The notes under the pieces are model-generated. The model ran no database searches and was not told the DNA's origin. It worked only from the letters and a program-made list of their open reading frames with translations. Positions 45,088 to 64,000 of a stretch of DNA of 64,000 nucleotides are shown in pieces (position 1 is the stretch's first letter; every line of letters begins with the position of its first letter). Source of the stretch: Psammoneis japonica. Its lineage: Eukaryota. Where the stretch lies: NCBI GenBank assembly GCA_008632985.1, contig QPGO01000103.1, positions 124,001 through 188,000 on the forward strand, in the 5' to 3' direction. Made by a program: the position numbers and the translations under genes.

Positions 45088-45383
45088 TGTTGACTTCAGG
45101 AATGCAAATGGTGTTGGCGAAAGATGCTGATTCACTTATTTGTGTTAGGCTGTCGTACCCATGACGAGCCCAGTGCACATACGCGCGCGTTTGTTCGCGC
45201 GATGCTTCCAGGTGGAGCCCCCTTCAAAACAAACTGCCTCCAACGCAACGGACAAAAAAAGCAAGTGCCATCGCCATCATCGCTTATTATACACGGTATC
45301 ATACATCGTGGCTGTGAACGGAATAAGACGAGGAACCAGCATTCAACTTGTAACCACAGTACTACATTGAATCGAAAGTCAAA

Positions 45384-47076
45384 ATGATCGAGCCCTTCAT
45401 GACTAGTGTGAAGCAATGGCTTCCAGACTGGCCAGAATGGTACGTGAAATTTGGTTGGGTTCATACGTTCTTTGTGCGAGGGTATGTTGCCTCGTTTTTT
45501 GTGTGTTTGTGTTTTTCTCACGTTGAGCTTGCCGTTGAAACTATACAAGGGCTCTGGATGTACTGCTCATCATGACTGCGTGTTTGATTTTGACACTGGG
45601 AGTAACTTCCTTCTACACTCCAGAGGACGAAAAGGAGAACCAGACAACCTCGCCTGCAAAACAGACAAACGGCAAAAAGCCCGAAAAGAGCGTAAAGGAG
45701 CTGCATAAGGAGTTTGATTCGTTTCGTCGTCAGTACATTGTGGTGTATCTAGTGATTATGCTGGCTGATTGGATGCAGGGAACTCACATGTACACTCTGT
45801 ACTTGTCGTACAATGTCAATATTTCTGCACTCTTTCTTACTGGATTTCTAAGTGGAGCCTTGTTTGCGCCCATTCTTGGAGGTGCGGTTGACAAGTTTGG
45901 TCGGAAGCGTTCTTGTATTGTCTATTGTGTGTTGGAAATTATAATCAATACCATGGAACACTCCACCAACTTTACGATTTTGTTGATGGGCGAGTTCTAG
46001 GAGGTATCTCCACCAATCTGCTCTTTTCTGCCTTTGAAAGTTGGATGACCACCGAGCATCGTCGTCGTGGATTCCCAGAGGAGTGGCTATCTAGAACTTA
46101 CTCCGAGGTGAGTCATGAATTTTCCCTTGATGCGACTGGGCAAACAAAGCGTCTTACCTTTCATATATAACTTTGTAGTCGTCTATTGGGAACGGTGCCA
46201 TGGCTATATTGGCTGGAATTGTAGCGCAGGTGCTGGAGGACTTTTTTGGACACATTGGGCCATTCCAGGGTGCGATTGCGCTTACAGTCTTGGCGCTTGT
46301 ACTTGTTCTAGGTTGGGAAGAAAATTATGGAGAGGAACATCAAGGTGATCATGACAAATCGACTCTTGCGCAGCAGATTGTAGATGGGTGGAAGACTACA
46401 GTTTCAGATTCTCGCATATGGAGAATCGGTCTTACGCAAGCATTTAGCGAGGGTGCCATGTATACGGTACGCCTTTGACTTATGTTTCCTTTTTATCTTT
46501 GTTTGTTTCTTTAACTCACGCAACCCTTCCATGATGGTATTGGTAGTTTGTATTCATGTGGGTCCCAACACTTTTGTCCTTGGAGCCACCCGGTGGCGTT
46601 CCGACTGGGTGCGTGTTTTCAGCCATGATGATGGCCATCACAATGGGTGGTGTTCTGTTTCCCCCGTTGAATTCTTTCATGTCCTTGGCATCAAAAGCGA
46701 ACGCTTCAGAGCTTTCGGCAACCTTTGTCTACTTTTGGCAAGCGTCAGCATGGCCATTCCGGCATACTGCTTGAGTTCTGGCTCGGATGATTGCTTCTGG
46801 AGCATTCTTACTAGCTTTATGGTGATTGAGCTATGTGTTGGTCTCTTTATGCCAGTTGCTGGGACTCTTCGCTCCAAGTACATCCCCGACGCACTGCAGG
46901 GTGGAATTCTCAATATCTTTCGATTGCCGCTAAATGCCTTTGTGGTTACTGGGACCTACTTGACAGACGTTTGGGATTCCTCCTCCGTCTACGTGATGGT
47001 GAGCGCTTGGTTCATGGCCGCTGCTCTCCTGCAGGCATCCATGATATCCAGCAAAAAGTCTGTAAAGACCGACTGA
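45384..47076 (+). CDS. Molybdate-anion transporter (MOT2/MFSD5 family)
   Basis: ADWMQGTHMYTLY, GGISTNLLFSAFESW, FVFMWVP, LRSKYIPD...NIFRLPLN. Introns 46108..46178 and 46467..46546. Frameshifts near 45570, 45990 and 46730. Confidence 0.88.
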
Positions 47077-48156: not shown

Positions 48157-48344
48157 ACATTCAACATGATACATGATGACAGATCACAGCTTTTTGGAGA
48201 GAGCCGTTGGTGGTTGGCGCGCGGCGGGCCTCGCTGAAATCCACGCGCGAAAACTGTTGCGACGCGCGTTGTACAGTACATACCGCACGTAGACCTCTAG
48301 TAGCACATGATGCGTTTTTAAAAATGTACGTATTATCCCTGCTT

Positions 48345-48658
48345 ATGCACACGAACCACCTGGTGGTCCGTGTGCATTTTTGGGTGCACACGAACCACCT
48401 GGTGGTTCGTGTGCACCCTACGCGAAATGCTGCGTAGATTTGTACCGAATAAATCTGAGTACTGTAAATCCGACGTAGGATCTACGTGTTTGTACCACTC
48501 AACACTAGCCACCGAGCCGGCAGTCTGTGCCGGCCGTCGTGAAAAATATTTTATGTCAAAGAAAGAGTTCGTCAGGGCCGGCGAAGAACACCCCACTACG
48601 ATGCGACCGGTATAAAATGTACGTAAATGCACAGGAACCAGCATGTGGTTCGTGTGCA
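48345..48658. repeat. Three related palindromes, consensus TGCACACGAACCA..TGGTTCGTGTGCA
   Basis: 48345..48377 (one mismatch), 48382..48418 (perfect 18-bp arms, 1-nt loop), 48628..48658 (13-bp arms, one mismatch). Confidence 0.9.
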
Positions 48659-48685
48659 AATTAGAGCTCGTGAAAAATAAGCAGG

Positions 48686-50785
48686 GTTATCTATCGCGCG
48701 CAACCGTTCGAGCGAAAAAAAGTTGAACGGCCCACGCGGGCGCAGAATTTTAATTGCGTGTATCGGAAGGCAAAATCTGCCTCCATGACGGTCATTTGCC
48801 GTCTCTTTCGCTTTTTTAGATGGTTTGAAGCCGATAAACCAAGCAATGTCGTTGGCGCTTGATCTGAAGAACACTGCAGGCACTTCAAATAAAAAAACAC
48901 ATCCACTGGAAACTTTTTAATCCATTCAACACACGCTTGAAAAGGGCGAATCGACATGGCACATTGCGCATCATGGTCGAACATTGCACTACTTGCCTTC
49001 GCCTCAATCGTATCTATTCGCCGTATATAACATGGACAAGGTGTGTAAAAATGTGTTTGGTTGTTGCAGTGAACCAACGACTTGCATTCCTGATTTTTGC
49101 ACAAGCAGGTGCCGAGCTGAACACATCATTTTCAACAGTTCCATCCCATGTTTACAGGCAAATGGCATGGCAAAGACCGTGTCAACTGTGATTTGCAATG
49201 CACGCTTGACGAATGCACAGAATCCAAAATGCGGAAGCATTGTGCGTCCCATTTGGACCGCATCACGTCGGTGTGGATGTTGGGTGGAACTTCAGCACAA
49301 CCACGACGACGTCGGGCGAGTCGTCGAGTGGCGGTGCGTCCAGAACAAAATGAATGAGGCGGCTGACGTTGGAGCCATGCCGGCAGTGGCTCAATGGTTG
49401 CTCGTTCTTGCATTGACAGAATGAACCCGAAGCCGCGGATGAACGTGCCGAGCAGGCGACAACGACATCTTGGAGGTGTGGTTGTGGGAATGTTTTCGAG
49501 TGTGCCTTCTGACGCTCCCACCTCGGGCATCTGAGATGAACCCGATTGAGCTGCTGTGGAATTGTCCGGTGGAGTGTCTTTTGTGTCAGTTTTTGGGGAG
49601 AGCACCGGGTGGCCCACCACGCAGCTGCCATCATTGGCTGCCTGCCGCCACTGTGACCACCAAGTCTAGCTGCAGTGGAGTCAACTCTGACATTGTCATC
49701 TGTGACCATCAATGTGTTGCATTCTTTCACCATTTTTAAAATGCACTCTAGCTAGAGTGCAGTTGCTGGTGGATGCGGGATGGCAGGATGAAAAGCCTGC
49801 TTCGGATTCTCCCAGCTTGCTTCTCCCATTGTCGAATTGTGATGGCATGCCATGTCACCAGCACCATCACGGCATGTGCTCCAGCCCGGAGGACTCTCTC
49901 TTCCTGCAANTCTCTTCCTGCAACGGTGGCAGAGGTGGGGGGGAATGGAATTGGGGGTGGCCTGCTGTGGGTTCGTTCCCGATTTTCACCCGCAGCACCA
50001 TTTCAACAGCACAGTCTGTCGCTGGCATCATCATGCAGGGCTCTCCAGCCTGCTGCAGAGGAAGGACTGGCTGTGCTGGAGGCGGTGGCGGCTGAGACGG
50101 CATGGCATGAGACTGACTGCCTCCCATGACAGAACTCAAAAAATTGGGGATGTTGCTGCAGCCGCTGGCGAGAGTTCACTGTTGCGTGTCCTTGCCAAAA
50201 AAGGAGTGACAAAACAAGTGTTGAGTTTTTGCAAGAAACAATGCAAGACACACAATCGATCAACAACTTGCAATGTGGGGCATGTTGTTTGAATTCAAAC
50301 CAGCGAGAAACCATGGGAACCACTTTGTTTGTGATGAGACAAAATTCCATTCAGCCACAGTTCTCTTCGTCATCGTGTTCGTCAAGGCGGCTCGATGACC
50401 AATTTACTCGGCGCATGACTTCTTGAAGAGATCCTTCGTCACTGCTGGCAACAGAGGAGTCTGCAGGGCTTTCGGTCAATCGCTGCACATTTGCAGCAGC
50501 TGGGATTGCACCACCACTGCAGCGATCCACGGAATCTTCTCAGTCAGATTTTTGACTCGATTCATCGTCCAACTCATCCTTTCTTGATGTCACATTGTTG
50601 CACTCGACAAGCGAAACAGGGTTGTGGCCATCAGCCCAGTGGAACGAGACATGCCGTGGCAAAAGATGGTAAATGACCGTCATGGGGGCAGATTTTGCCC
50701 TCAAGATTGGAAAAAAAAATTCTGCGCCCGCGTGTGGGCCCGCTCAAACTTTTTGTCGCTCGAGCGGTTGCGCGCGATTGACAAC
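48686..50785. mobile_element. ~2.1-kb element with ~120-bp imperfect terminal inverted repeats (degenerate DNA transposon, superfamily unknown)
   Basis: 48686..~48806 is the reverse complement of ~50661..50785 (shared ATCGCGCGCAACCG, CGCGGGCGCAGAATTTT, GGCAAAATCTGCC, CCATGACGGTCATTT). No target-site duplication identified. Confidence 0.8.
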
Positions 50786-51534
50786 ATCTACACAAATCTT
50801 GACATTGCCATGGTGCTGGTGGCAGAATTCTACGTTTGATCGTTGCATGCCAGCAACTCGCATTTGCATGTCTGTCAATTGGGGTGAAAACTGCTGACTG
50901 TGCTCTGCAGGCGGCCAGACAGCCAAATCGCAACTTTCAATTTATTTTCAATCTCTGTCAACAACAACAGGCAACATTTCATGAAAATGATTTCCAATGA
51001 TCTGTCAAGGCCTGACTTTGCTGGCAGGACCAGCAGAGAGCATCTGTCGATGATGCATCTCTGCCGGAGAGGGTCTGCTGCTGTGTGCAAACAAGACTGC
51101 TGCTGTCCTTGTCTCATCAGCTCTCCAAGGCCTGAGGATCAACAATTTTTGGAGCTGCTCTGCAGTGCAAAAATGCACAGAGGAGCCACAGAGAAAGGCT
51201 GTGCAGCCCAACTGCCACACCAGAGCTTCCCCTCTGAAAAAAAATGAAAGATGAGATGAGAGCAACAACCAAAGAAAATTGCCAAGGCAGCGCAATGTGT
51301 TTTTTCCCATCTGTTCTAAAACAGATGTTTGGTTTGGTTTTGCCTCTGCTGTGCAAAGATGCTGGAACAACAAGTGCACATTTGTGCCCCAGGGCAGCAA
51401 AGTGCCCTGCAGCCAATCTCTGGGCAGGGCACCTGGCATCGCAAAGATGTCAAGCATCAATGTGCATGTTTGGCGCCCACCACCGCCCGGCCATTGAGTG
51501 GTTGAGATGATGTGGCACTGATGGTGACTGACAA

Positions 51535-51864
51535 ATGCTCCTAAAACAAAGCCACAAAACTGCTTTTTGTGGACAAGCTCTGTTGCATCAAATGGAGGAC
51601 AAGTTCAGCAAGGGAGCAATCAAAGCCCTCAACAGGGAAGGACTTGATGATGATGATTTTAAAGAGGTGGAGCACATCTTTGAGATGAACAAGAAACAAA
51701 GAAACGAAAAATGTTGGCTCCAGTGGATGAAATGGGATGACCACATTGAAGTGCTTCATCACACCAATGAGTTCGAGAACCAGCACCATGTGAAGGAAGA
51801 TGCACTTGACACTTCAGTTGATGTTTTGCACAAGGATGTGACAGCAAACTTTGCAAAATCTTGA
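51535..51864 (+). mobile_element. PIF/Harbinger-like transposase N-terminal remnant
   Basis: 'MKWDDHIEVLHHTNEFENQHHVKEDALDTSVDVL' resembles the W..H...L....F...Y.M....F..LV..L segment of Harbinger transposases. The DDE core is not seen. Confidence 0.55.
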
Positions 51865-51929
51865 AGCTCCACTGAAAAAGTCAAGAAGCTGTTTGGGAAA
51901 GCACAGCAGTGGAAGGCCCCCAACTCTTG

Positions 51930-54110
51930 TTGCATTGCATCTTGTGCCAGCTGCTGTCCAATGTGCCAACTTGCTCTTCTGGTTTGTCATTGACTTCTCA
52001 TTTGTGGTGCTGACAAAAAATGCACTTGAAAGGGACGAGAGCTTGCTGTCTTCACACATGGAGGACCCAACTCCCCAATGCCAGGGGCGGGTGAAAAAGA
52101 GGGGGGCATGGGAGCAAAGCACTGCAGAAGGGCAGAGGTGCAAGCACTGAGCACATGATGGTCACCAACAAGGTGCTGCTGGCTTCCAAAAATGCAAAAA
52201 TGACTTCTTTGAGGTGCTGCACTGTGTGGTCATTGTTGTGCTGATTGCAGCTCATGAAGAAGCCCTTGGGTGGCTTGGCAGTGCTTGCCCAGACAATTGT
52301 GGCACAGAGGGGAGGAACAGCACACAATTGCTTTGCAACCTTGCAAACTTCTTTTTCCTGGATGGCAAAATGGCAGATTTAGAAGAGTCAACAAGGGAAA
52401 GCAAACAGAGGTTGCTCCAAGAACACACCTGGGCTGTTTTGCGCATGCTCTGCTGAAAAGAAAGTCAAAAAAAGTGCAAGCTTTTGTCGAGTGAAAGCAT
52501 GGTGAGTGGCGCTCCATCCAAAGCTGTGTGCAAAATGCAGTGCTCTCAGTGCTTGAAAAATTTCCTTTCACAACAACAAGACTGAGATGGGTCACCCAGC
52601 CCTGGGTCCTCTGCTGCTGTTGGTGTCCACAAAGCCATTGCTGTGCTCCAAAAGAAAAGTGGATTTGCCATTGTGGCAGCCACTGAGCCAAGAAATGAAC
52701 ATGGTCCAGTTGGTCACAGAGTGTTGCAGCTGAAGAAAACTTCTCATGGCATTGAGAGGAGGCTGTGGTGTGGCTGGCACAAAATGACATCAAAGTTGTG
52801 CAGAAATGTGCACATGCAACATGCAGCACATGAGAAAAGAATCCATGTTGCAGCACCAGCAGTGTGAGGTCCCACCTGGAGCTGGGGTGCATCTGGAAAG
52901 CATCAACTCCAGGCTTTGCTCATTGGTGTGAGGCTCAGAGTTGTTGGCAAATTCCTCTCCAGTTGTTCAGAAGGACCATGGTCTCCTGGCTCTGAGAGGG
53001 ATGGGAGGCAAGGCCTGCTCAGCGGCTTTTCTCCCCTCCCTGTCAATGCAGCTCCAGCCTCACAACAGTCCACCTTCTTTGCTCAGTTCATGAAAGGTCC
53101 AATCCTGGGAGCAGAGTCTGCTACAAACCTGCTCCAAGCTGCTGTGGGCTGCAGCTTGCACCATGATCAAGACTCCAGTGCAGTCACAGTCTCTCCCCCT
53201 TTCCTCACATTTGTGCCGCTCCAGAAACTGAGGCATCTGTGCACTCTTGGGTGAGATGCTGTGATGAGAGGTGCTGCAGCATTGCTTTGCACAGGCATGC
53301 AATGGCTTTGTTCAGAGATTCCAGCTGCCCCTGGGGCTGTGGACTGCTGCAGCACACAAGATGATGAGAGATGCATGTGGCTCTTCTCACCTTCCAGCCA
53401 TTGCATGCATCAATGGTCAATGGAGGCCTTTTGGGCGGGCATGCCTGCTGTCTGGCCAGTGGCTGTTGGACAAAACAGCAACACCAATGGTTCATCCTGG
53501 CCCAGCAGAGAGGCTGGCTCTGTCAGTGGATCTGCTCTGCGTGCAAGTTTGCCAGAAAGGCTGCAACATGTGGGGGCTGCACTGCTCAGGAGCAGCTCCA
53601 AGGAGATTGGGTCTTGCAAAAAACCACCCCAGTCTCTGATTCAATGCACTCACCAGCACCCTCCATCAAGTGCACACAGCCCCGGCAACCCACAGTGGTG
53701 TGGCCACATTTGTCAGTGACAGAAATGTTGTTCCAGGCCATCCTGGCAACACAGAATCTTGTCAAGCAGAAATTTCTAGCCTGCAAAGCCTTGTCAGCAC
53801 AGCAGTGGACATTTGTGAACACTGCCACATTGCTGAGGGTTCCATCAAGGTGGAGCCCTTCCTCTGTCCCCATCAATGCCCACCCAGTTGAGAGCATCTG
53901 CTCTGCCCAACACAAGCCCCAGAAGCCAAAAACTGCACCTCATTTCAAGGAGAGCCAAACAAAGCTCAATGTTTCACTTTTTTGTTGCTCAAGAACCAAC
54001 TCCACTCAAGGAGCATGCTTGCACTCTACAGTTGCAGCTCTCAGCCCCATTGAAAATGCCCCCAAGGAAGCATGCCAATTGAGGCTGTTTTGGGGATGCA
54101 GAGAGCTGAG
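51930..54110. repeat. Degenerate repeat, copy A
   Basis: ~51930..52070 and ~53410..54110 align by eye, in direct orientation, to ~55960..56990. Confidence 0.8.
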
Positions 54111-55959
54111 AGCTGCCTGCATCATGATCCAAAGATCAAGGCCATTGTCTGTCCAGTGCTCATGAGCCTGGTGTCAAGGAGAGGGCCAAGTGCACCCAGA
54201 AAGATTTCAACCAGTGTGTGGGGAAGCACCACAATGACTGCAAGTGCAGCAGCAACCAAGCCAACCAGCACCAGCCACATCTTCTGTTTTTTTGTTTGCT
54301 CTGCTCTCCTCAACTCTGAATGCAAGAATGATGACAAAACCAATGCTCCTGTCATCGGTGCTGTCAAACAGAGGAACACTGGCAACTCTGACAACTCATC
54401 ATCAATGGATGATGTTGTCACCCCCTTCACTGCAGGGTGTCTGGTGGGGCAACAGTCCGACATTGCATGCAAACAAGCACACAACATTCTTGCTGATGTT
54501 TTTCCTTTCTCACTGGATGGCATTTTGCTGGGTCGCCCGAGACCATTTTGGCCAATGGCACAAACTTGTTTCAGCATGATGTGCAACAATTTTCAGTGGA
54601 AAACGACTGGCATTGAAGACTTGTGGTTTGCATGCTTGTTGTCATTTCTGGCAATTTTTTGTCAGATTCAGTGCATTTTTTACACTGGATTGCACTGGAT
54701 CCAGTGCAAATTCTGTGCGCTTCAGAAACGTCTGCCAATGACCACATCATCAACTGTGTGAGCTGCTTCCATCCAGTGCCCACACCCATCAGTCCTCAAT
54801 GATTTCTTCTTCTCTCCTGCTGGCCAATCAAGTTCTTCACCTCATGTGGTGAAAGCACTGCCCCTGTTGTCATGGTGCTTGCAAGTGTTCATTTGGACAA
54901 ACCGTTGGCATCACCTGATGATCGTCCATCTGCTGTGCAGATCAGCATTGTTTCTGAACAAGATTCTGCATCAATTCCAAGTGAGAAAAATGTTTCTTCT
55001 GGCATCCTTCTCATCATGTCATCAAGGCTCCCCATTTTTTGTGCTTGCAAGTCCTGAGCCATGCCCCTTTTTCTGCTTGCCAGCTTGCCAAGCCTGCTGC
55101 TTGGAGCAGTGAACTGTTCACTTTCACCCCAGCACCTGCAAGCATGCAGCCCAGCCAGTCTTTGGCAAAGACAAGATCCGTCCTTGGAATCAAGGTTTTC
55201 TCCCAGATGTTGTGCTCATTTTGCATCCTCTTCTGAGCACAATTGTCCTTTGCTGTCATGGTGTGTGTGCTTTGCATTCATTCCAAAGGAAAACAACAAC
55301 CTTCTTCTTGTGCAACTTCATTTCAACCAGTTGTCTCCAGTGGGCACAACTGCAAAGTGGTGCCATGAAGTGCCAGCTGCAACAGCTTCTGCCACTGCGG
55401 GTTGGCCGGTGCAGGCATTGCTGGGCAAAGGTGCAACGGTGCTGCAAATTGGGTTTGAGTTGTTTTTTTTTGTTGCCACTGGTGGCACACCCTTCACTCT
55501 TGTTGAAAAAGTCTTTGAGAGTGTGGAGATTTGCATGCCAAGCACAACAAATGATGTGTTCCTTGCATCGCATTGCAACCAAAAACCCATGACAAAAGAG
55601 AAGATGCACAAATGATGCAGAAGGAGGACACAAATGGTGTCAAGAAGAACAAGATGTGCAACAAGGCTGACAGAAATGACATGACAAGATGGGAGGAGGG
55701 TGCAGGGCAGAATCAAAGTGAAAAAGAAGCAAAGGAAAGCTCTGCTTGGCTGCAGGCTAGAGCCACACTTCTGCAGGACTGGCGCCAGAGGAAAACCCAC
55801 AGTTGATTCACACAAGCTTTTGTGCAATGCCACGATGAACAAAAAAATTTCCTGGCAACAGCTGACAAACAAAGCTGGGACAGCATCCACAGCAAAGTTC
55901 AAGAAGCTTCTTGGAAGAGCACAGCTGTGGGGTCCCCCATCCCCTGCCCAATTCTTGTG

Positions 55960-56990
55960 GCATTGCATCATGTGTCAGCTGCTGTCCAATCTGCCAACTT
56001 GCTCTGGTTTGTCATTGACTTCTCATTTGGTGCTGACAAAAAATGTGCACGTGGAGTGGAGCTTGCTGTCTTGCTTGACACATGGACCCACCCACCCCAG
56101 CAATGTGATGCTGTGGCAAGAGGTGCTGCAATGTGTTTCTTTGCACAGCAGGTGTGCAACATCTGTGCTCTCTCAGAAACTCCAGCTGCCCCTGTGTTTG
56201 TGATGAGAGATGGGTGATGCTCTTCTCAGATGGGGCCAACATTGCACACATCAATGGTCAACAGAAACCTTGCAGCCTGTCTGTTGTCTGACCAGCAGCT
56301 GTTGGACACAACAGCAGCACCAATGATTCATCCTGACAGAGACACCCACTCTGCCAACAGATCTGCTCTGCACTCAAGTTTGCCAGAAAAGCTGCAACAC
56401 ATGGGGCTGCACTGCTCAGGAGCAGTTCTAAGGAGAAAAGGTCTTCCTGAAGAAGCGCTGCAGCCCCTGATTCATTGTGCTCACCAGCGCCCTCTGTCTT
56501 GTGCACACAGCCCAGGCAACCCACAATGGCATGGTGGTCATGGCTGTCAATGTCAGCTCTGCAAAGGACTCTTTCCTGGGTGCATCGACAGCAGGCACAA
56601 ATGTTGTCCCAGGCCATCCTGGCAACACAGAATTGTGTCAAGCAGAAATTGCCAGTCTGCGCAGTGCTGTCAGCACAGTGGAGGACATTTGTGAATGCTG
56701 TCACATCATGGAGGGTTCTGTCAAGGTGGAGCCCTTCCTCTGTCCCTGCCAATGCCTGCCCAATTGTGAGAGCACCTGCTCTGCCCAACACAAGCCCTGC
56801 AGCCAACCACATCTTTTTTTGAGGAGAGCCAAACAAAGCTCACTGTTTTACATCTTTTTTGCTCAAGCAACTCTGCTCAAGGAGCAAGCTTGTGCTCTGC
56901 AGCAGCAGCAGCTCTCAGCTCCACTGAAAATGCCCCCAGGGAGCGCGCCAATTGGGGCAGTTTTGGGGATGTGCGGAGAGCCAAGAACCA
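55960..56990. repeat. Degenerate repeat, copy B
   Basis: Shares CAGCTGCTGTCCAAT, CTGGTTTGTCATTGACTTCTCATTTG, GGGGCTGCACTGCTCAGGAGCAG and TCAAGGTGGAGCCCTTCCTCTGTCCC with copy A. Confidence 0.8.
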
Positions 56991-58334
56991 CCTGCACCAT
57001 TGGCATGAGTTTTGAATCACTTGCCATGTGCCAGCCACAGATTTTGACAAAGTCATGGAGGCTGAGCTCCTTGGCTGTCTGCCATTTCACATGGAGGAGC
57101 TCTGGGCACCCCACTCTTTGTCCTGCACCTGGGCTCATTTCACACATGACAAGCTGGCACCCAACCCCCAACCTCAATGCCACATGCTGTTGCCATTGCA
57201 GGGGCTGGCATCGTCATTGTCAACTTGTGCTTTTGGTGGTTTGTTGGCAAATGTCAGCTGCACATCCTGTCAGCCATGAGACATCCCACCCCACATGCTG
57301 ATGACTGCCCAGCTCGCGAGTCTTTTGACAACTTTCCTGCCCATCTTTGCAAGGTTGACACACCCATTGCTGACCCAAGTTGACCCGCTCTTCTGTCTGG
57401 CTTGTTCTTTTGTGCACACAGCCACCTTATGCTGGATTTGAACAAGAAATGTTTCTTGTTTGGACTTGCCCATGAGTGGGTTGAAGCCAACCCCAAGTCA
57501 GCACACTCATGGTTTGCCGTTGTGGGTGCCTGTTGTCATGCCTTTGTGGCCAATGTCACATGACACAAAGACACTTTTGTCATGCCACATGTCTTGATCC
57601 AAAAAGAAGTTGTTGGACATGTGGGTTGCCATTGGTTGTGCCTTTGCTGCCTGTGTGAATTGGATGAAGCCCTGGTGGCAAGCTTTTGTGCTGACACTGG
57701 CACATCACACCAGTTTGTTGCACATGGGAATGAGCACTGCCCATGCACCAATCACTTGGCATTGGTGAGCCACTCAAGGGGAGTTGATCAGTGTCTTGTT
57801 TTCACAAGTTTGGTGTGGCAGCCAGTGCGGGGAACAAAAAGGAATGCCCAGAAGCCATGCAAATTTTGACAAGTTTCTCTGCACTCCTCCAGTCAGAGCA
57901 ATTCCTCATCATTGCATGGTCCACAACAATGCCATGGCAGCATTGCCATTGCCAAACAACTTCCAAGTGCATTGACTTGATTCAAGATGCCTTTTGGGAA
58001 CCTGTGCTTCATTGAATCCAGGACAATGCCACCACAACATCAGAGTGCACGAAATGTTAAAAATGTGTAGATTTGCATGATGACAATTTGTCAAAACATT
58101 GCAAAACATTGTTGTCATGTGATGAAAGGCCAACCTCTGGTTGCAAGTTTGCCATGCCAACATTGCAATGACTTGTCAAGAATCATGTGTGCCATTTTTC
58201 ACTGTGTCCACATCACCACATCTGCCTCCACCTTGTTGCCACATGCCAATGCGTGATTGCATTTCCACACAATCCTTGGTTTGTCAATTTTTGCAAACAT
58301 TGTCCCAAACGAGAAAAGCATTTCATCGGTCAAG

Positions 58335-59633
58335 TCAATCCCTTGTCACATCTGCAGTGCAATGACCGAGTGCCATGTGAACTGTGTGCACATTTTCTTG
58401 CTGCAACTCTCTTAAACTGAGCTGACGATCATCATCGGACTCGTCTCCATCGGACTCGTCTCCTCCATTGTCTGTTTTTCCTTTTGCGCCTTCCTCCTGC
58501 TCATCGTCATTGCTGTTGTTGTCCCTGCTGCTCTCCACCATTGGGCTGTTCATTGCCTTCACCTTGTCCGTGTCGCCAGTCGGTGCTTTCTTTTTCTTCT
58601 TTTTTGCTTCTCCGGACTTCTTGCACTCGCTTTTCTTGATCTCCGCATGCCACTTTTCAAACTCCTTGCCCTCCTTGGAGTCTCTGTCTTTCGTCACCTC
58701 TTCGCATGAATCATTGAACTGATTGATTCCGTCGTCTCCCCAAGACACTCGTTGTTTCTTTGGCTTTGTTTGCCGAGGGGCAGGCCTTGTTTCTTTGGGC
58801 TCCATTTCCTCACCCAATTCTTCCACCGCCTCCTCCTTGTTCCTGTGTGCCCACACCTGCCAACAATTCTCCATGGCCAATGGCACCAAAGCTTCGTCAC
58901 CAACCGTAAACAACTGTGAGACCTGTGCATTCCCAGTTTTGATGGTGCTGCCCCATGCCTGCTTTTGCTTGGTTTGAGGCAGGATGTGATCACAGAACCA
59001 CTTGTGTGCCTGCTTGTTCCTTCGTTTGCCACCGGCGACAGTGTCCAGGCTGAACGGATCCCATGTCAGCACAAACGGGATGTCATTCTCTTCATTCTTG
59101 TCACGGCTTGACTTTTTCCTCTTTTTCCTCCTGTCTGCCGCCTTGAGTTTCTTTTCTTTTTCCTTTCCCTCTTCCTTGGTGACAACGCCCACATGGACAA
59201 AGCATCACCGTCATCTTCTTGTGAGACACACGCAACTCTCGAATCACACACATTGGTCACTCAGCTCACGTGCCATTGCCTCCGCCCCAACAGCCGAACA
59301 CACCGTGTTTCTGCGATTGTCAATTTGCCTTTTTGCCGCCTTTTTTGCCCATTCCTCCCAAGTTCCTGACCAATTTGAAGTGTCCATGTTGCCACCAGCA
59401 ATCTGTTTCTTGACAAACATTGAGGTGCTCCCATTGCTTGCCAATTCAGATGGACTGAGAAACTTCACCTGTGGAAAGAGATCATTTCTAGCCACCTTCT
59501 CTGCTTCTGATTTCAATGCACCATGCGCTGCCTGCGCACCTGTTCTCTTCAACACTGCCTGAAGTCTCAGGCTCATTGGCTTGACAGTCTCATTTTTCTT
59601 TCTCTTCTTTGCCGGTTGTGCTGGAGACGACAT
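58335..59633 (-). pseudogene. Transposon accessory ORF divergent from the Plavaka transposase
   Basis: 'DEALVPLAMENCWQVW...SWGDDGINQFNDSCEEVTKDR' with a Lys/Glu-rich tail and no Tyr. Split over two ORFs (59244..59744 and 58335..59192). Confidence 0.6.
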
Positions 59634-60087
59634 CTTGATCTTTTCATGGCAACAATGAGAGGAGCGGCACTGTTCGACAGTGCAACCATCGTTTGGGTCG
59701 TGTTGAGACAGCCAGGCACTCTGTTTTTCTCTGCAACATTGCACGAATTGTTGTCAGCAACATTGAAATTTGAAAATGTGTTCATGTGCAACAACGAACA
59801 GTCCAACTCACTTTTTGACATGGCTGTCATTGCGTTTCAACGGAGATGACATCCTGCATTTTGACAGCAAATAAAAAGCACAACATTCGTTGTTGATGCC
59901 AGATGAAAAATCAAAATGCAGGTGCGTCACACCTGTGAGAAACATCCCAATCTGGGGGACAATGTAATGTTTGCCAATTTCTCGCCATTTTTTGCGCGTT
60001 GTTCTTTTTTTCCCTTCTCATCCACAAGACAAGGACAATGAGCATGAGTCTTGATGAAGGCCCTGTCAACACATTGTCTGATTTACA

Positions 60088-63000
60088 ATGGACAGAAACC
60101 CTCTTCTCTGTCCCGGTTGTGGCCAAAGTTTTTTGCGAATGGCCTGCCATTGGAGACACTCACCGACGTGTCACTCAGTTGCCCAAGAGTTGCAAACCCA
60201 AGATCCAATCCCAGATCAAAGCGACATTCCTGCCACAACAGAGGGGCCACCCGAAGAAAGCGGTGGTTCTTCCTCTTTGTCCTCTGATGATGATGAATCC
60301 TGTCCCAGGCGATCAACTCGCAGCAGAGTCCCAAGATCTTCAACGAGTGATCCGAGCAGCAGCCCCTTGTTCCATTCCCCGGATGACGCGCCACACGGAA
60401 TGGACGACATGTCCTCCATTTCATCAAACCACAGCATGCAAGGAGTTGAACTTTTGGCAATGAATGAGTTGGATGTTGGCGGTGGTCAATCCTTTGCTGC
60501 AGTGTTGGACGTGACAACAGAGGAGGAAGAGGACATTGACGATGAGGATCAACATTTGGGGAGCAGGTGTGATGCTCCTGCAGAAGAGGCCTTGGCTTCT
60601 GCTCCTCTTTGACAAATCTTGACGGAGCTTGCGCAGAGTTGTGCAAGAAGCTCATGGACACATGTGGTGCTCCCCTGGAATTGTGCGATTGCATTGTTGA
60701 TTTCATTGAGAGGCACACTGGTGACAGCAACATCAAGCTTGGTGCAGTTCTGCCAAGGAGAAAAGAGTTGATGCGCACCTTAACCAAGCATTTCCCTCTT
60801 CCACCCAGCGAGTCTATTCCTGTCACTCTAGAAACCAAAAATTTCAAAACCGGTTTGCCAAAACGAGTGTCAGTGCCAAGATGGGATTTCACAAAGGTTT
60901 GGGAACAGTTTTTGCTCGATCCTCACCTGTGGTGCAGCAGAGAGAATGTGGCCAATCCAGACAATCAATTTGGGAAGCACAAAGCAAAGGGCCGGACAAC
61001 AAGTGCCTTTTGGCGGGTGAGTGGTGCAGGCGCAGTTACGAAGAACGGACAACTGACCCGGAGAAACAATTTCTCGAGTGCAATGTCATTTGCCTCGACA
61101 AGACTGGCAGGACACAAGGGATGGGATCATGTTGCGGAGAGCCAGTGATCATGACCTCTGCGCATGTTGCCTTCAACAAATGGTTGGACAAGAGTGTCTG
61201 GAAACCTCTTGGTTGTCTCCCGGATTTGGAAAAGATGTCGTCATCTGCGGCAAAGAATCTCTCAAACAATCGCAAGGCAGAGAAGGGACGCTCGTCAAGA
61301 GACTGCCACACTTGCTTGCGTGTCATTTTGGAGCCACTTTTGGAAGTCATGAGAAAAGGAGGCATGAAAACATGCGTGCAACGAGGGGATGAGATGCGAC
61401 ACCTCCGCGTGATCCTGCTGATCGTTCTCATCATAGGAGATGCAAAAAGCGGCGACTGTCTCGTCGGACGATGCGGAGGTCACAACTGTTGTCAACGTTG
61501 CTGTCGTTTTTGCCTGACTGGCTTCAACAAACTGGACGACCCATGGATTGAATGCAAGTTTGTCCAAGGACTGGATCTCCACCAAGTGCAAACCAAGGCC
61601 AACGATGACAACAGATCAGACCAAGAAAGGAAGCACTGGTTGGGCATCTTGCTTTGCCTCAAGCAACACAACGCACCTGCCAACTGTCTTTTTGAGGCAG
61701 ACTTTGGCGCACAACCACACGGCGTCACCCTTGCAACAGCAAGCGACATGATGCATCTCTTTGAAAACGGCACCTTGAAAAGGGCAATCAATTCATTTGT
61801 AGACAGCATGACACCTGTGGTCGCAAGTGAGGTGGACAGCACAGTGGAAAGGATTTTCAGCAATCACCGGTCAACTTGCAAAGCATCCTTTTTGCAAACA
61901 AACTTCAAAGGAGGAGCAACGTCGCTCACCTTCCTCAACTCTCACCACTGGGCTGGAATGGCTTTTGTTTTCTACCTTCTCCTGTCAACCAGCGAGGGAC
62001 GAAACGCACGTGAGTCATGCTTCCTTGACGAGGACGCAGACGAACCCATTGTTCCAGAGAATCGCAAGACACCCAAAGCAAACTTTGAGAGTTGCCACCA
62101 ACCTGGTGAGTGCTTGGACGACTCTGACGATGAAAGGTCGGAGGAGTCCAAAGAGGGTGACTGGGACGAAAATGAGGATGAGAAAGAGGAGAGTGAGGCT
62201 GAGGAAAGAGAAAAAATGCAAGGGAAAAAGACTCAACTGCAGCGTCCGGCAATTCATTCAATTGCTCGAGGACCTTCTTGTCTTCCACGCATGGCACAGG
62301 CTGGGTGATCCACCCATCACAAGCGTAACTCCCAGTTCATCTGTTCAGAAAATGAACAAGAAAATCCGTCTCCTCGTTGACCGGATGGTGCAATTCGTCC
62401 CGCGAACAGAAGGACACAGATGGAAGCTTCAAAAGCTTCATGAAACACTCCATCTCCCAGTGTTTCTTTGTCATCACCGACATGCGATGAACTTTGATGC
62501 AGGCTTGGGGGAATGTCTCTTGAAAGACTTTTTCAAGCTGCCGTCATCTGCCGCACAACAACGCAACCTCGACAGTTTTCTGAAGCAGGTCGTGTCACGT
62601 GTGGAGGACCAAATGAGGCTCAATGCCGCAATTTCAGCCAACAGTTGGATTTTGCCAACTGGGAAAAAGGAATCATCAAGAGTCAGGACGGACAATCACA
62701 TGCTGGGAGGAAGTGCGTTCACTCTCACCTACAACCAAGGGATTGGCGCTGTGACGTTTGAGTGGAACAGCGAGCATGCTCGTTGCCAAGTTCATCCTGT
62801 GTTGCAAACTTCATGTCGGAAAAGTGGGAGGATTGTGTTGGTGAAGATAGTGAAAATGCACACCTGACTTGTAAGACAGAGTTTTACAATGCAAACAGGA
62901 GGGACACGCACCGTGCGCACCCCGATTTCAAAAGCGAAGGACCATGGCATGACTTTGCCTGTGTGACCTTTGGCACACGAAAGGGCGATCAACAGTTTCC

Positions 63001-63360
63001 CTCCCGTTTGCCATGTTTCTTCGAACAGGAGTGCACAGGATCGATTTTTGCAGTTGTCCATCCAACTGCTTGTCAAGCTGACCAGAGAACTGCAAGGCAA
63101 CGGCATCAGCATGCAGACTTGGCCAGTTGCTGGCAGCTTGATCACAAACGAAACAACTGGCTGTCAATGCCTGAGAAGACTCAGTGCTCACCTGAGTTAC
63201 GTGTTGTCCCTGTCGAAGCAATTGGGGACAATGTTTTGGTTTATGAAGAATGTCCAGGAGCAGCAGAAGCGCAAGAAAAGGCCCCATTTGTTTGGGCCAC
63301 ACAGGACAGAAGGAAGTGTTGGTCAGATTTGTTTCTAAAATGGGATGCGCACATCAATCT
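60088..63360 (+). mobile_element. Plavaka (CMC/EnSpm-related) transposase pseudogene
   Basis: Motifs LDKT, PLGxLPDL, xHTCLRVILEPL, IIGDAKSGD, R.CR.C, DMMHLFE.G, WKLQKLHE.LHL, NFD...GE..LK.F.K.P and RAHP.F...GPWxDFA across ORFs 60609, 60881, 61827 and 62762. Several frameshifts. Confidence 0.82.
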
Positions 63361-63386
63361 GTCATTCACTCACAGTGTGTGCATTT

Positions 63387-64000
63387 TTAGAGCAATTGCT
63401 TCCTCACAGATTCCATGCAGTGTCCACTTGCACAGTCCATTTGGTCATCCTGCGCCATGAAATGTTCCCTGGCAGCCACAATCGCCTGCTGAAAGTCGGC
63501 GCTGTGGTCAGGCTGGTTGACAGCCACCAATTGTGCCTCGATTTGCAATGCCAACTGCAGGACCCTTTCTCTTGCCACGGCTTCTTCGTCCATGGCCCGG
63601 ATCGCGGTCCATGTCCCTCCCCGCATTTGATCTGTGCCTGGCCACAGATCATGCAAAGCTTGCCACTGTTGCTGCAAGGCAACGTCTTTCCTTCTCAAAT
63701 CGTCAGGGCCCCTGGAGCAACGTGATTGCAGCCTTCAGGACGCGCAGCGGCTGTGTTAGATGTCGCCTTCGAAGGAGTGGCACGGCATGGCGGTGGATGG
63801 ATTTGTTGATGCTGTTGATTGCAGATTGCTCCCTCTCCACTGCTCTGTTGGCGTCTGTGTCAGAATTTGCCCTGAGGCTTCTCAGAAGCAACGTCGAGTC
63901 ACAGCTGTGCAGCATGTGCAGCCTTGACTCTGATTTTTGATGTCCCGCAATGGAGATTGGGAGCCCCAATTCTTTTGCGTCAAATGCGTCACCGTGAAGA
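63387..64000 (-). pseudogene. Helical/coiled-coil ORF remnant convergent on the transposase, probably part of the same element
   Basis: ORFs 63387..63698 and 63703..63969 are Ala/Gln/Arg-rich, lack Tyr and share the TpA-free composition. Confidence 0.4.

Follow-up and report, generated by a model that had tools for sequence, protein, structure and literature searches.

Probable TpA hypermutation of a transposon-rich domain with tyrosine loss as its coding read-out

A Plavaka-like pseudogene depleted of tyrosine

The 64-kb window, by which we mean the whole stretch of DNA analysed here, raises the question of how a transposase could lose nearly all of its tyrosines to cysteine and histidine. 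A sequence-only reading had explained this loss by transitions of TAY codons to TGY or CAY, that is TA>TG/CA on both strands, within the transposase.

As judged by homology, the gene at 60088-63343 on the plus strand is a dead Plavaka-like DDE pseudogene, consisting of five frame pieces joined by four frame changes. The ORF start previously read at 60881 is spurious, and the gene starts near 60088. Piece 1 (60088-60612, frame 1) comprises an N-terminal part that resembles a Cys/His zinc finger and a linker rich in Ser and acidic residues; its CPGCG...H...C pattern parallels the N-termini of the relatives P0001, P0002 and P0005, and its weak match to Zn_Tnp_IS91 (E = 0.071) is below the cut-off. 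Piece 2 (60603-60986, frame 3) is covered by tblastn HSPs of P0001-P0004 at 31-35% identity, and in five contigs of other copies an additional C follows 60603, where the frame breaks. The catalytic core lies in piece 3 (60980-62230, frame 2), which is part of a 475-aa ORF and shows 41-42% identity to P0001-P0004 by tblastn. Piece 4 (62223-62804, frame 3; tblastn identity of 36-40%) could be aligned to the relative P0008, the window having FHAWHR and LCHHRH where P0008 has FHAWYR and LYYYRH. At the break behind it, other copies have an additional C behind 62804 or an additional G behind 62806; two of the frameshifts of the window copy are absent from other copies. Piece 5 (62798-63343, frame 2; tblastn identity of 30-33%) also aligns to P0008 and terminates exactly at the P0008 end in the codon TGG (63341-63343), which might be an erased TAG stop. 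The transposase has a length of approximately 1,080 codons, in an element of more than 5.9 kb.

The 475-aa ORF matches the Plavaka profile PF18759, which we take to represent CACTA-like fungal elements, with 24.0 bits and an E value of 2.7e-5. This is below the Pfam cut-off of 26.3 bits, whereas P0005, P0050 and P0077 pass it with 28.4-31.9 bits; P0001, P0008, P0105 and P0123 gave no Pfam match at E <= 0.01. Similar to Plavaka/KDZ-type DDE transposons, the element is long and has deletion derivatives, and its ORF matches the same profile region as these relatives. However, besides the score below the cut-off, its clade lies far from the fungal seed family. No relative of the window ORF is above 71% identity. 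In a 23-sequence alignment that includes the window ORF, all 20 invariant columns are kept, among them the Asp of DKTG, the Glu of GEP, GDxKSGD and DMMH, which presumably have catalytic roles in Plavaka-like transposases. The invariant Tyr of YxDKTG, which the window reads as Cys, would point to a missense inactivation of the transposase.

Tyrosine codons are lost in one direction

As had been read, the 475-aa ORF (60881-62308) contains only 2 Tyr, against a median of 2.87% in its relatives (n = 154), a deficit with a binomial P(<=2) of 1.1e-4 for an ORF of this length. Seven of its positions had been proposed as Tyr in the family; four of them are clearly Tyr in Tyr-normal relatives, and the other three are mixed. 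In regex tallies on 176 Tyr-normal relatives, where only proteins with a motif match were counted, Tyr occupies 82 of 82 sites at xYxDKTG (Cys in the window, ICLDKT), 71 of 75 at R[DN]YH (window RDCHTCL), 39 of 48 at FHAWY (window FHAWHR) and 41 of 47 at GPWYD (window GPWHDF). The mixed positions are those in GR[Y/F]GG (Y 11 and F 10 of 21; window VGRCGG), xRAHP (F 24 and Y 14 of 55; window THRAHP, with Tyr in P0008) and LGxLPD (F 30, Y 13, L 12 and M 1 of 56; L, M, F and L in the four closest full-length homologs). Over 16 columns with Tyr in at least three of four full-length homologs, the window has Y 2, H 4, C 3, F 3, K 2, W 1 and R 1. Thus Tyr is retained in 2 of 16 columns, compared with an overall column retention of 294/498 (Fisher p = 1.4e-4).

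The closest Tyr-normal relative is P0008, with 553 aligned residues and 63.5% identity. Its 18 Tyr correspond to 3 Y, 7 H, 4 C, 2 S, 1 I and 1 F in the window, with no C>Y or H>Y change (Fisher p = 4.9e-5), as expected from the proposed Y>C/H replacement. The TA>TG/CA polarity also holds, the predicted TA-loss classes amounting to 36 of the 202 substitutions versus 13 in the reverse direction. The companion codons agree with the prediction as well: V>A is GCA in three of four cases, I>T is ACA, L>S is TCA and L>P is CCA. In addition, T precedes in four of the five T>A changes. Changes of Arg are few and symmetric (R>Q 3 vs Q>R 3, R>C 1 vs C>R 1). Over 16 sites along the window gene, Cys and His make up six runs where about 8.9 would be expected, which is not significant.

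The depletion covers three unrelated blocks

The loss is not specific to the transposase but reaches from 49,154 as far as the window extends. The TpA-depleted domain (49154-64000, no strand assigned; delimited by dinucleotide counts and TpA o/e) extends beyond the window on its right side, measures at least 14.8 kb and comprises three mutually unrelated sequence blocks, A, B and C. It holds 46 TpA in 14,847 bp, compared with 1,730 in the 48,170 bp to the left. The TpA o/e is 0.02-0.08 in the domain and 0.37-0.63 at 1-48 kb, and the o/e of TG and CA in the domain is 1.5-1.95. The step is sharp: the final dense TpA is at 49,153, and from 49,154 the density drops from 35.9 to 1.7-4.9 per kb and stays low up to the window end, a loss of 88-95%. 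The transposase span (60088-63360) has 15 TpA, whereas background windows of the same size have 93-167 (mean 117.6). Depletion is equal in all frames, in non-coding and in unrecognisable DNA. The Tyr>Cys/His pattern is therefore best read as the coding read-out of TpA loss in the domain.

To the left of the edge, at 1-48 kb, are ordinary host genes such as myosin, IMPDH and E2, with normal TpA, long intron-poor ORFs of 805-1,225 aa and 49% GC. A TA-normal repeat at 48,171-49,153 (depth 422-1,531) directly adjoins the domain, so not every repeat was hit; apart from this exception, the footprint is confined to foreign or mobile DNA, with its step at 49,154. An inverted repeat (48686-48807 and 50661-50785) was considered for a test of TpA polarity and proved too diverged (76%). 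The sequence has a single N at 49,910.

GC content is unaltered by the TpA loss, and AA, AT and TT deviate from background by no more than about 15%. TA, CG, TG and CA add up to a constant sum per kb: 237.6 for the background, 252.4 for block A, 239.8 for block B and 233.4 for block C. Block B loses 85.3 TA+CG per kb and gains 87.7 TG+CA; the corresponding values of block C are 53.9 and 49.9. As the gain equals the loss, the TpA change is restricted to TG/CA products and is almost only A:T>G:C. The action on both strands that had been proposed is seen in the equal gains of TG and CA (96.3 and 97.1 per kb in block C). Both products are finely mixed (runs-test z of -0.09 to +1.36; variance ratio of 0.9-1.1), and neither test found strand-coordinated TG or CA tracts within the window. 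Stops were removed rather than created, again as foreseen: TAA+TAG falls from 15.4 to 1.9 per kb, while TGA is steady at about 20. TpA and TAA/TAG are thus about 8-fold depleted relative to the background, and CpA is enriched. Altogether, the counts show the direction, dinucleotide specificity, strand symmetry, locality and coding-frame independence of the change.

Block A (49154-50999, no strand assigned) is a low-copy repeat, TpA-poor with CpG largely kept (TA 4.9 and CG 47.7 per kb) and without a Pfam match. Its summed contig depth is 226-422, compared with about 58 for host genes, and it differs from other copies by TG<>CA swaps at 49335/6 and 50159/60. Block B (51000-58037, no strand assigned) is a single-copy unrecognisable relic in which TpA and CpG are nearly gone (TA 1.7, CG 7.0, TG 115.8 and CA 115.4 per kb; background CG 58.1). 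Three contigs of run X1 (926, 2769 and 3235 bp; depth about 32-34) match it with 0 differences. Two Pfam matches of block B are at chance level (E 0.006-0.008, below cut-off) and none is credible, as is the case for 57 further stop-to-stop ORFs of the domain. The two arms of its internal direct repeat (53,250-54,130 and 56,100-57,005) are 79.7% identical and differ by 25 CA<>TG double differences, with at most 4 of any other class. Such discordance, here and against other copies, indicates that some conversion took place after duplication. In block B, as at a lone TG<>CA swap, ancestral CpG and ancestral TpA give the same outcome, and only protein comparisons are unambiguous.

Block C (58038-64000, plus strand, right end outside the window) is the copy of a high-copy DNA transposon that carries the transposase pseudogene. 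Its left edge at about 58,038 is marked by the loose ends of 8 contigs, and the summed depth of run X1 contigs is 4,700-25,800. Here TA is 4.2 and CG 35.9 per kb; CpG in blocks C and A is still 62-82% of background. A contig joint from 60071 to 63079, skipping 3,007 at a depth of 889, represents internal-deletion derivatives of the element, and the ends of the element exceed its transposase body in abundance. The most repeated part (depth 14,409-25,790) contains a Lys/Glu-rich ORF of 285 aa without Tyr (58335-59192, minus strand), for which we found no Pfam family and no homolog of 156-499 aa at E <= 0.001.

Tyrosine-poor relatives in public proteins

Comparison of public metagenome protein sequences shows what appears to be the same Tyr-loss signature in at least three further transposase lineages. 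The full-length proteins P0050, P0105 and P0077 (1127-1290 aa) have 1 Tyr each, their cluster members 0-1, and Arg is normal. Of the 20 variable sites in the P0105 cluster, 12 are swaps of the C/H, M/T or L/S type or polymorphisms in which Tyr is retained, and in the P0050 cluster 8 of 10 belong to the same classes. At the C/H columns the outgroups have Tyr, never Arg. One site reads M/T/I/T/T among near-identical copies, which implies an ancestral ATA. About 7 of about 31 Tyr sites of the P0105 cluster are discordant among five copies. The Tyr loss is also present in the independent ENA and JGI protein sets; the TpA content of these relatives is deduced from the proteins. Metagenome scans with P0008 and P0077 confirmed no DNA locus of the relatives, and viral-contig scans with P0105 and P0050 gave no match.

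An apparent split between all-Cys (P0077) and all-His (P0105) at 10 family Tyr columns was discarded, as the pairwise counts of P0105 are H 12 and C 11; those of P0077 show a modest Cys bias (C 5-8 vs H 2-3). Two relatives from other sources are poor in Arg (P0071, 0.64% R; P0059, 0.76% R), consistent with CpG decay.

Proposed process and the timing of TpA loss

Based on these results, we propose that a local DNA-level process converts the A:T pair of TpA to G:C, giving TpA>TpG on one strand and TpA>CpA on the other. It would have run near completion over the transposon-rich domain, which starts at 49,154 and continues past 64,000, while sparing the host genes next door. The predicted read-outs are Tyr>Cys/His, Ile>Met/Thr, Val>Ala, Leu>Ser/Pro, A>G at first codon positions after T, and loss of TAA/TAG. 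The decay of CpG to TpG/CpA may have proceeded in parallel and more slowly, reaching completion only in the oldest block at 51-58 kb. We regard TpA hypermutation of the transposon-rich domain, with Tyr loss as its coding read-out, as the likely explanation.

Alternatively, the loss of TpA was a single event in a master element, either here or in an earlier host, and the element was amplified afterwards in its TpA-free form, a course of events that we consider possible though clearly the less likely one. The family is a high-copy one with deletion derivatives, and 1,116 of the 3,843 contigs placed on the window are at least 99% like it; these k-mer contigs of run X1 may derive from the assembly data of the window itself and are not independent. 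Over 19 kb they show only 159 sites with a transition (A>G 41, G>A 41, C>T 41 and T>C 36). C>T and G>A thus do not outnumber T>C and A>G, and no TpA-rich siblings were seen at 10% of depth or more. By our own estimate, about 100 copies, each with about 190 ancestral TpA resolved independently, would leave about 380 such sites in block C alone. As variable places are far fewer than independent resolution predicts, most TpA losses seem to be common to the roughly 100-400 copies and older than much of the amplification. The small share of discordant Tyr sites in the P0105 cluster points the same way. However, blocks A and B are different sequences, B being single-copy, and both are depleted; the edge at 49,154 is that of the domain. 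Moreover, CA<>TG differences, seen both inside the window and in comparison with other copies, require some conversion after duplication. Even with a single early loss, it would still be a TA>TG/CA mutational event, so that the timing and not the process would change.

Selective avoidance of TpA, as an escape from a TA-reading nuclease, from TA-target insertions or from RNA instability, is very improbable. In many genomes no dinucleotide is less stable or more frequently avoided than TpA, and three Tyr-less relatives keep full-length ORFs. But open frames are expected anyway, since TA>TG/CA cannot create a stop. Family-invariant Tyr is replaced by Cys/His and not by the conservative Phe, and this copy is frameshifted. 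That the depletion extends over three unrelated blocks, over every frame and over non-coding DNA, and includes invariant Tyr, argues against selection on the protein. Modified bases cause systematic long-read errors, and a chimeric join of foreign DNA at about 49.15 kb might be suspected from the nearby N; such an artefact is hardly credible, as the edge lies 756 bp before the N, X1 contigs give 50,705-58,065 with 0 differences in three pieces and all 30 bins covered (maybe from the same data), the ENA and JGI protein sets show the Tyr loss, and codon-level polarity indicates real mutation. Just as implausible is RNA-level A-to-I hyperediting, ADAR/ADAT-like with a 5' U, copied back into DNA: the UA context fits the neighbour preference of ADAR (bioRxiv 10.64898/2026.01.13.699255), but a DDE DNA transposon has no reverse-transcription step, both strands are finely interleaved, and the single-copy relic and non-genic DNA are affected too.

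Comparison with known systems

The preferred process, hypermutation of TpA in DNA, has a close counterpart. TpA-specific A:T>G:C hypermutation has been described so far once, in one chlorarachniophyte, Bigelowiella natans, in a 2026 preprint (Mettrop et al., bioRxiv 10.64898/2026.01.13.699255), which reports the following. In mutation-accumulation lines, two integrated viral regions had 231 mutations, of which 230 were A>G/T>C, all at TpA. The de novo rate was elevated about 1000-fold, only in some lines, and the DNA concerned was integrated NCLDV and virophage DNA, with a Rho of 0.45 in the active NCLDV region. The genome has 124 TpA-depleted, CpA+TpG-enriched clusters rich in DDE and RT domains, defined by a Rho(TpA) of <=0.43 together with a Rho(CpA+TpG) of >=1.52, and a low-TpA CDS subset averages 0.0018 TpA. 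The Discussion of the preprint mentions the 5' U neighbour preference of ADAR and uses RIP as a comparison (bioRxiv 10.64898/2026.01.13.699255).

Similar to B. natans, A:T>G:C change in our domain occurs only at TpA and on both strands, the footprint lies on foreign or mobile DNA with normal host genes, and DDE domains are involved. The o/e values of the domain (TpA 0.02-0.08; TG/CA 1.5-1.95) compare with those Rho cut-offs, and the 1.7 TpA per kb of block B is close to the value of the low-TpA CDS. In contrast, the depletion here is saturated, affects a high-copy DNA transposon and relics rather than viral inserts, and runs alongside CpG decay, in a host that is probably of another lineage. 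Another host is suggested by the long intron-poor ORFs and by an Atlas search with myosin, which gave a cluster with Bacillariophyta as its commonest phylum (rank 2), a weak lead; the corresponding search with IMPDH was uninformative. This locus is probably a second host lineage for the B. natans-type signature, likely a diatom. By analogy, the agent may be an adenine deaminase that works on DNA in a silenced or repeated state, and the process may serve genome defence; no deaminase gene was found within the 64-kb window.

Fungal RIP resembles the present case as a dinucleotide-specific transition hypermutation of repeats in situ, with sharp domains and dead transposases. In ascomycete fungi, RIP changes C to T, chiefly at CpA, so that TpA and stop codons arise. 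We therefore rejected RIP as the cause, since the direction is opposite, with TpA and TAA/TAG depleted and CpA enriched. Decay of methylated CpG, transposable elements being methylated in diatoms, feeds the TG/CA excess through CpG>TpG/CpA. Its signature is present in block C (CG 35.9 vs 58.1) and dominates in block B (7.0), yet it is secondary for the Tyr finding, as it can give neither Tyr(TAY)>Cys/His nor TpA loss where CpG is kept. ADAR and APOBEC of animals share the context-dependent, deaminase-style hypermutation against selfish nucleic acids, and ADAR the 5' U preference. However, they act on RNA or reverse-transcription intermediates, whereas here a DNA transposon and relics were changed heritably on both strands.

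Literature searches on TpA/CpA/TpG change in diatoms, and on diatom transposable elements with RIP and dinucleotides, found no report. Other term combinations gave only fungal RIP or unrelated work, as judged by the listings, and among the matches listed for Plavaka in diatoms none was on this topic by title or abstract.

Biological significance

The apparently shared losses, the excess of end regions, the deletion derivative, the copies lacking two of the frameshifts and the open frames of 1,127-1,290 aa in three unrelated Tyr-less lineages hint at elements that are TpA-free but mobile. That TpA-directed A:T>G:C editing is a widespread and still-active defence of marine protists beyond chlorarachniophytes, under which some Plavaka-like families keep spreading as TpA-free elements without any target left for the mutator, is a speculative extension that we rate as improbable at present.

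In its effect on coding sequence, the signature is the mirror image of fungal RIP, with stop codons erased and not made. As stops are few and only TGA is common, gene callers would predict long spurious ORFs in all six frames of such DNA. Further cases may be screened for by Tyr-less ORFs, by Cys/His and Met/Thr swaps between near-identical copies, and by Rho(TpA) <0.1 together with Rho(TG, CA) >1.5. Near-identical copies of at least three transposase lineages resolve their last TAY/ATA codons differently. The same signature, saturated on a DNA-transposon family and probably in a different lineage, would turn a single-species curiosity into a candidate general defence.

Tyrosine loss in a Plavaka-like transposase

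Searching by tblastn with four full-length relatives (1,128-1,267 aa) revealed a transposase gene of about 1,080 codons on the plus strand (60,088-63,343), readable only as five frame pieces at 60088-60612 (frame 1), 60603-60986 (frame 3), 60980-62230 (frame 2), 62223-62804 (frame 3) and 62798-63343 (frame 2). The longest open stretch is the 475-aa ORF at 60881-62308, and the gene does not start at the ATG of this ORF. The gene had been called a Plavaka transposase from the sequence alone; its core adjoins Plavaka (PF18759) in Pfam with 24.0 bits, just below the cut-off of 26.3, whereas the database relatives P0005, P0050 and P0077 are above it. Therefore, we name the gene Plavaka-like.

As the sequence-only reading had counted, the 475-aa ORF contains only two Tyr; the stitched five-piece reading has 5 in 1,080 residues. 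Against a family median of 2.87% (154 relatives), the binomial P values are 1.1e-4 and 7e-9, respectively. At 16 columns with Tyr in at least 3/4 full-length homologs, the window retains two, the others being His (4), Cys (3), Phe (3), Lys (2), Trp (1) and Arg (1), compared with a retention of 294/498 over all conserved columns (Fisher p = 1.4e-4). The closest relative with normal Tyr content is P0008, a 571-aa C-terminal part with 63.5% identity to the window over 553 residues. Its 18 aligned Tyr correspond in the window to His (7), Cys (4), Tyr (3), Ser (2), Ile (1) and Phe (1), and changes from Cys or His to Tyr are absent (Fisher p = 4.9e-5). Among seven positions named as Tyr by the earlier reading, four carry Tyr in almost every relative, and the other three show a mixture of F, Y and L; intact homologs with Cys or His at these positions were looked for and not found. 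Where the P0008 protein ends, the window continues with the codon TGG (63341-63343), after which the frame is open until TGA at 63458-63460. This TGG would be the trace of a TAG stop changed to Trp.

Specificity for the dinucleotide TpA

The effect is at the level of the dinucleotide rather than of tyrosine. The proposed TA>TG/CA polarity holds against P0008, with 36 of the 202 substitutions following it and 13 opposing it. The further amino-acid classes expected from this polarity occur with the expected codons: Val>Ala is GCA in 3/4 cases, Ile>Thr is ACA, Leu>Ser is TCA, Leu>Pro is CCA, Ile>Met occurs twice, and Thr>Ala is directly preceded by T in 4/5 cases. Only 15 TpA are found in 60088-63360, compared with 93-167 in background windows of equal size. 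The expectation that TAA and TAG stops are removed, not created, was borne out: together they fall from 15.4 to 1.9 per kb with TGA still near 20. Stretches between stops lengthen on average from 27.7 to 39.3 codons, and long spurious ORFs are seen in every frame. Arg (CGY) is present at family Tyr columns in the window (63200) and in the P0105 cluster (column 920); both bases of one TpA were apparently converted here (TAY>CGY), which means that new CpG can arise from the process.

A TpA-depleted domain with a sharp edge

The depletion is domain-wide and not limited to the gene. Ordinary host genes at 1-48 kb, including myosin, IMPDH, E2 acyltransferase and AAA ATPases, have 35.9 TpA per kb (o/e 0.37-0.63). 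The last dense TpA lies at 49,153, beyond which 46 TpA remain in 14,847 bp up to the window end; on the right, domain and element both continue past this end. The domain comprises three unrelated parts: block A, a low-copy repeat (49,154-50,999; TA 4.9 and CG 47.7 per kb), block B, single-copy and without recognisable domain (51,000-58,037; TA 1.7 and CG 7.0 per kb), and block C, the transposon (58,038-64,000; TA 4.2 and CG 35.9 per kb). TA, CG, TG and CA taken together stay constant: they add up to 237.6 per kb in the background, compared with 252.4, 239.8 and 233.4 for blocks A, B and C. TA+CG is down by 85.3 per kb in block B and TG+CA up by 87.7, the corresponding values in block C being 53.9 and 49.9, with GC content and the remaining dinucleotides nearly unchanged across blocks. 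CpG loss is complete in block B only, whereas TpA loss is complete in all three; therefore, TpA conversion is the faster process here. Block B (7 kb) has about half the depth of the homozygous flanks (32-34 versus 57-61) and is probably on one haplotype only.

Several further features were observed around the edge. A repeat at 48171-49153 with normal TpA (45.8 per kb; summed depth 422-1,531) adjoins the left edge of the domain, so conversion does not reach every repeated sequence. An inverted repeat (48686-48807 and 50661-50785, 76-90% identity) spans the edge at 49,154, and block B holds a second repeat pair at 51,868-52,062 and 55,886-56,086. The 46 surviving TpA are non-random in context: ATAC, GTAC and ATAT are absent, versus about 13 expected from background proportions, and CTAG, TTAA, GTAA/TTAC and CTAA/TTAG survive best in 49154-64000. 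Small as these numbers are, they may point to a mutator that prefers certain flanking bases.

Among the host genes, the MFS_5-type gene at 45336-46666 is covered by a contig of sequencing run X2 in four pieces with gaps of 110, 71 and 80 bases, as expected for a spliced transcript, in a run that carries the label 'DNA?'; short introns are present in host genes of the window. With its start 6 bases past the end of the 1,005-aa myosin ORF on the same strand (17418-17424), a 1,225-aa CBS-domain ORF forms either an unusually tight pair with it or one gene with read-through or an annotation issue.

Copies of the element and timing of TpA loss

X1 is the only sequencing run holding this stretch and is possibly the assembly's own data, so perhaps not independent. 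Its contigs over 57.7-64 kb reach a summed depth of 4,700-25,800, compared with about 58 for host genes. The left edge of the element at 58,038 is marked by eight loose contig ends, the end region (58.3-59.6 kb) is 2-5 times as abundant as the transposase body, and a joint 60071>63079 at depth 889 represents an internal-deletion derivative. This is the pattern of a DNA-transposon family that includes non-autonomous members. An additional base is present in other copies behind 60603, and likewise behind 62804 or 62806, coinciding with two of the four frame changes of the window copy; therefore, less broken copies exist.

Part of the conversion took place after duplication. The diverged direct repeat of block B (53,250-54,130 and 56,100-57,005, 79.7% identity) shows 25 CA<>TG double differences between its copies, with at most 4 of any other double class. 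TG<>CA swaps against other genomic copies of block A occur at 49335/6 and 50159/60. Swaps of this kind, in the repeat as well as in block A, could also have arisen from CpG. X1 speaks against purely independent resolution in each copy: 159 transition places were found in 19 kb with the four types equal, in contigs that drop rare variants and with 40 of 197 places listed, while independent resolution of some 190 ancestral TpA in each copy would give about 380 such places for block C by itself. C>T and G>A show no excess, so TpA-rich siblings are not visible at 10% of depth or above. Most TpA loss may thus be common to the copies matched at 90% identity or more.

Tyr-poor relatives elsewhere

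Among the best 150 family representatives, three are full-length with just one Tyr each, namely P0050 (1,290 aa), P0105 (1,200 aa) and P0077 (1,127 aa). They are normal in Arg and share 27-48% identity mutually and with Tyr-normal relatives. Tyr of the nearest relatives is mostly replaced by His or Cys (His 12, Cys 11, other 7 and Tyr 1 for P0105 against its relative P0123), and in place of the YxDKTG Tyr, which is invariant, two of the proteins carry Cys and one His. The 90% clusters, from ENA or NCBI records, have 3 and 8 members (the larger one includes five full-length proteins), and members are mutually about 99% identical. Cys/His, Met/Thr or Leu/Ser swaps or Tyr-retaining polymorphisms account for 12/20 variable sites in the P0105 cluster and 8/10 in the P0050 cluster; outgroups have Tyr, in no case Arg, at the Cys/His columns (e.g. 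546, 615, 920, 1158, 1176). At one column the members show Met/Thr/Ile/Thr/Thr, which points to ATA resolving into ATG or ACA. Such discordance in nearly identical members indicates that the last TpA were still converting independently per lineage. DNA loci for these relatives were sought in metagenome and viral-contig scans and none was confirmed; their TpA loss is deduced from the protein sequences. Two partial relatives from other sources, P0071 and P0059, contain 0.64% and 0.76% Arg, the median of the family being 6.24%; His or other residues stand where the family has Arg. They are the CpG-decay counterpart of the Tyr-less copies, and their hosts presumably methylate and deaminate CpG instead.

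Known systems and proposed mechanism

The closest precedent is the TpA hypermutation of Bigelowiella natans, as described in a 2026 preprint (bioRxiv 10.64898/2026.01.13.699255). Of 231 mutations in two integrated viral regions of mutation-accumulation lines, 230 are A>G/T>C. All of these hit TpA, with a rate some 1000-fold above background, and they occur in some lines only. The genome has 124 TpA-depleted, CpA+TpG-enriched clusters and 324 low-TpA CDS (mean TpA 0.0018) enriched in DDE and RT domains, and an ADAT2-like DNA adenine deaminase is proposed. The window lies comfortably within the footprint criteria given there. No report of such hypermutation in diatoms or other lineages was found in the literature searched. 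CpG decay occurs in the window as a secondary process and fits less well than the B. natans process. Fungal RIP, which changes C to T at CpA and produces TpA and stops, is the mirror image of the window process and also a poorer fit.

Five properties are established, namely direction, TpA specificity, fine-scale strand symmetry, a sharply bounded domain and independence from coding. We propose that adenine would be deaminated to hypoxanthine within a silenced domain, in DNA that is double-stranded or transiently single-stranded, and that targeting might proceed via chromatin or small RNAs. As TA>TG/CA never creates a stop, freshly edited transposases remain open yet lose every Tyr; given the invariant Tyr beside the Asp of DKTG, we take them to be dead. 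The role of the process may be defence.
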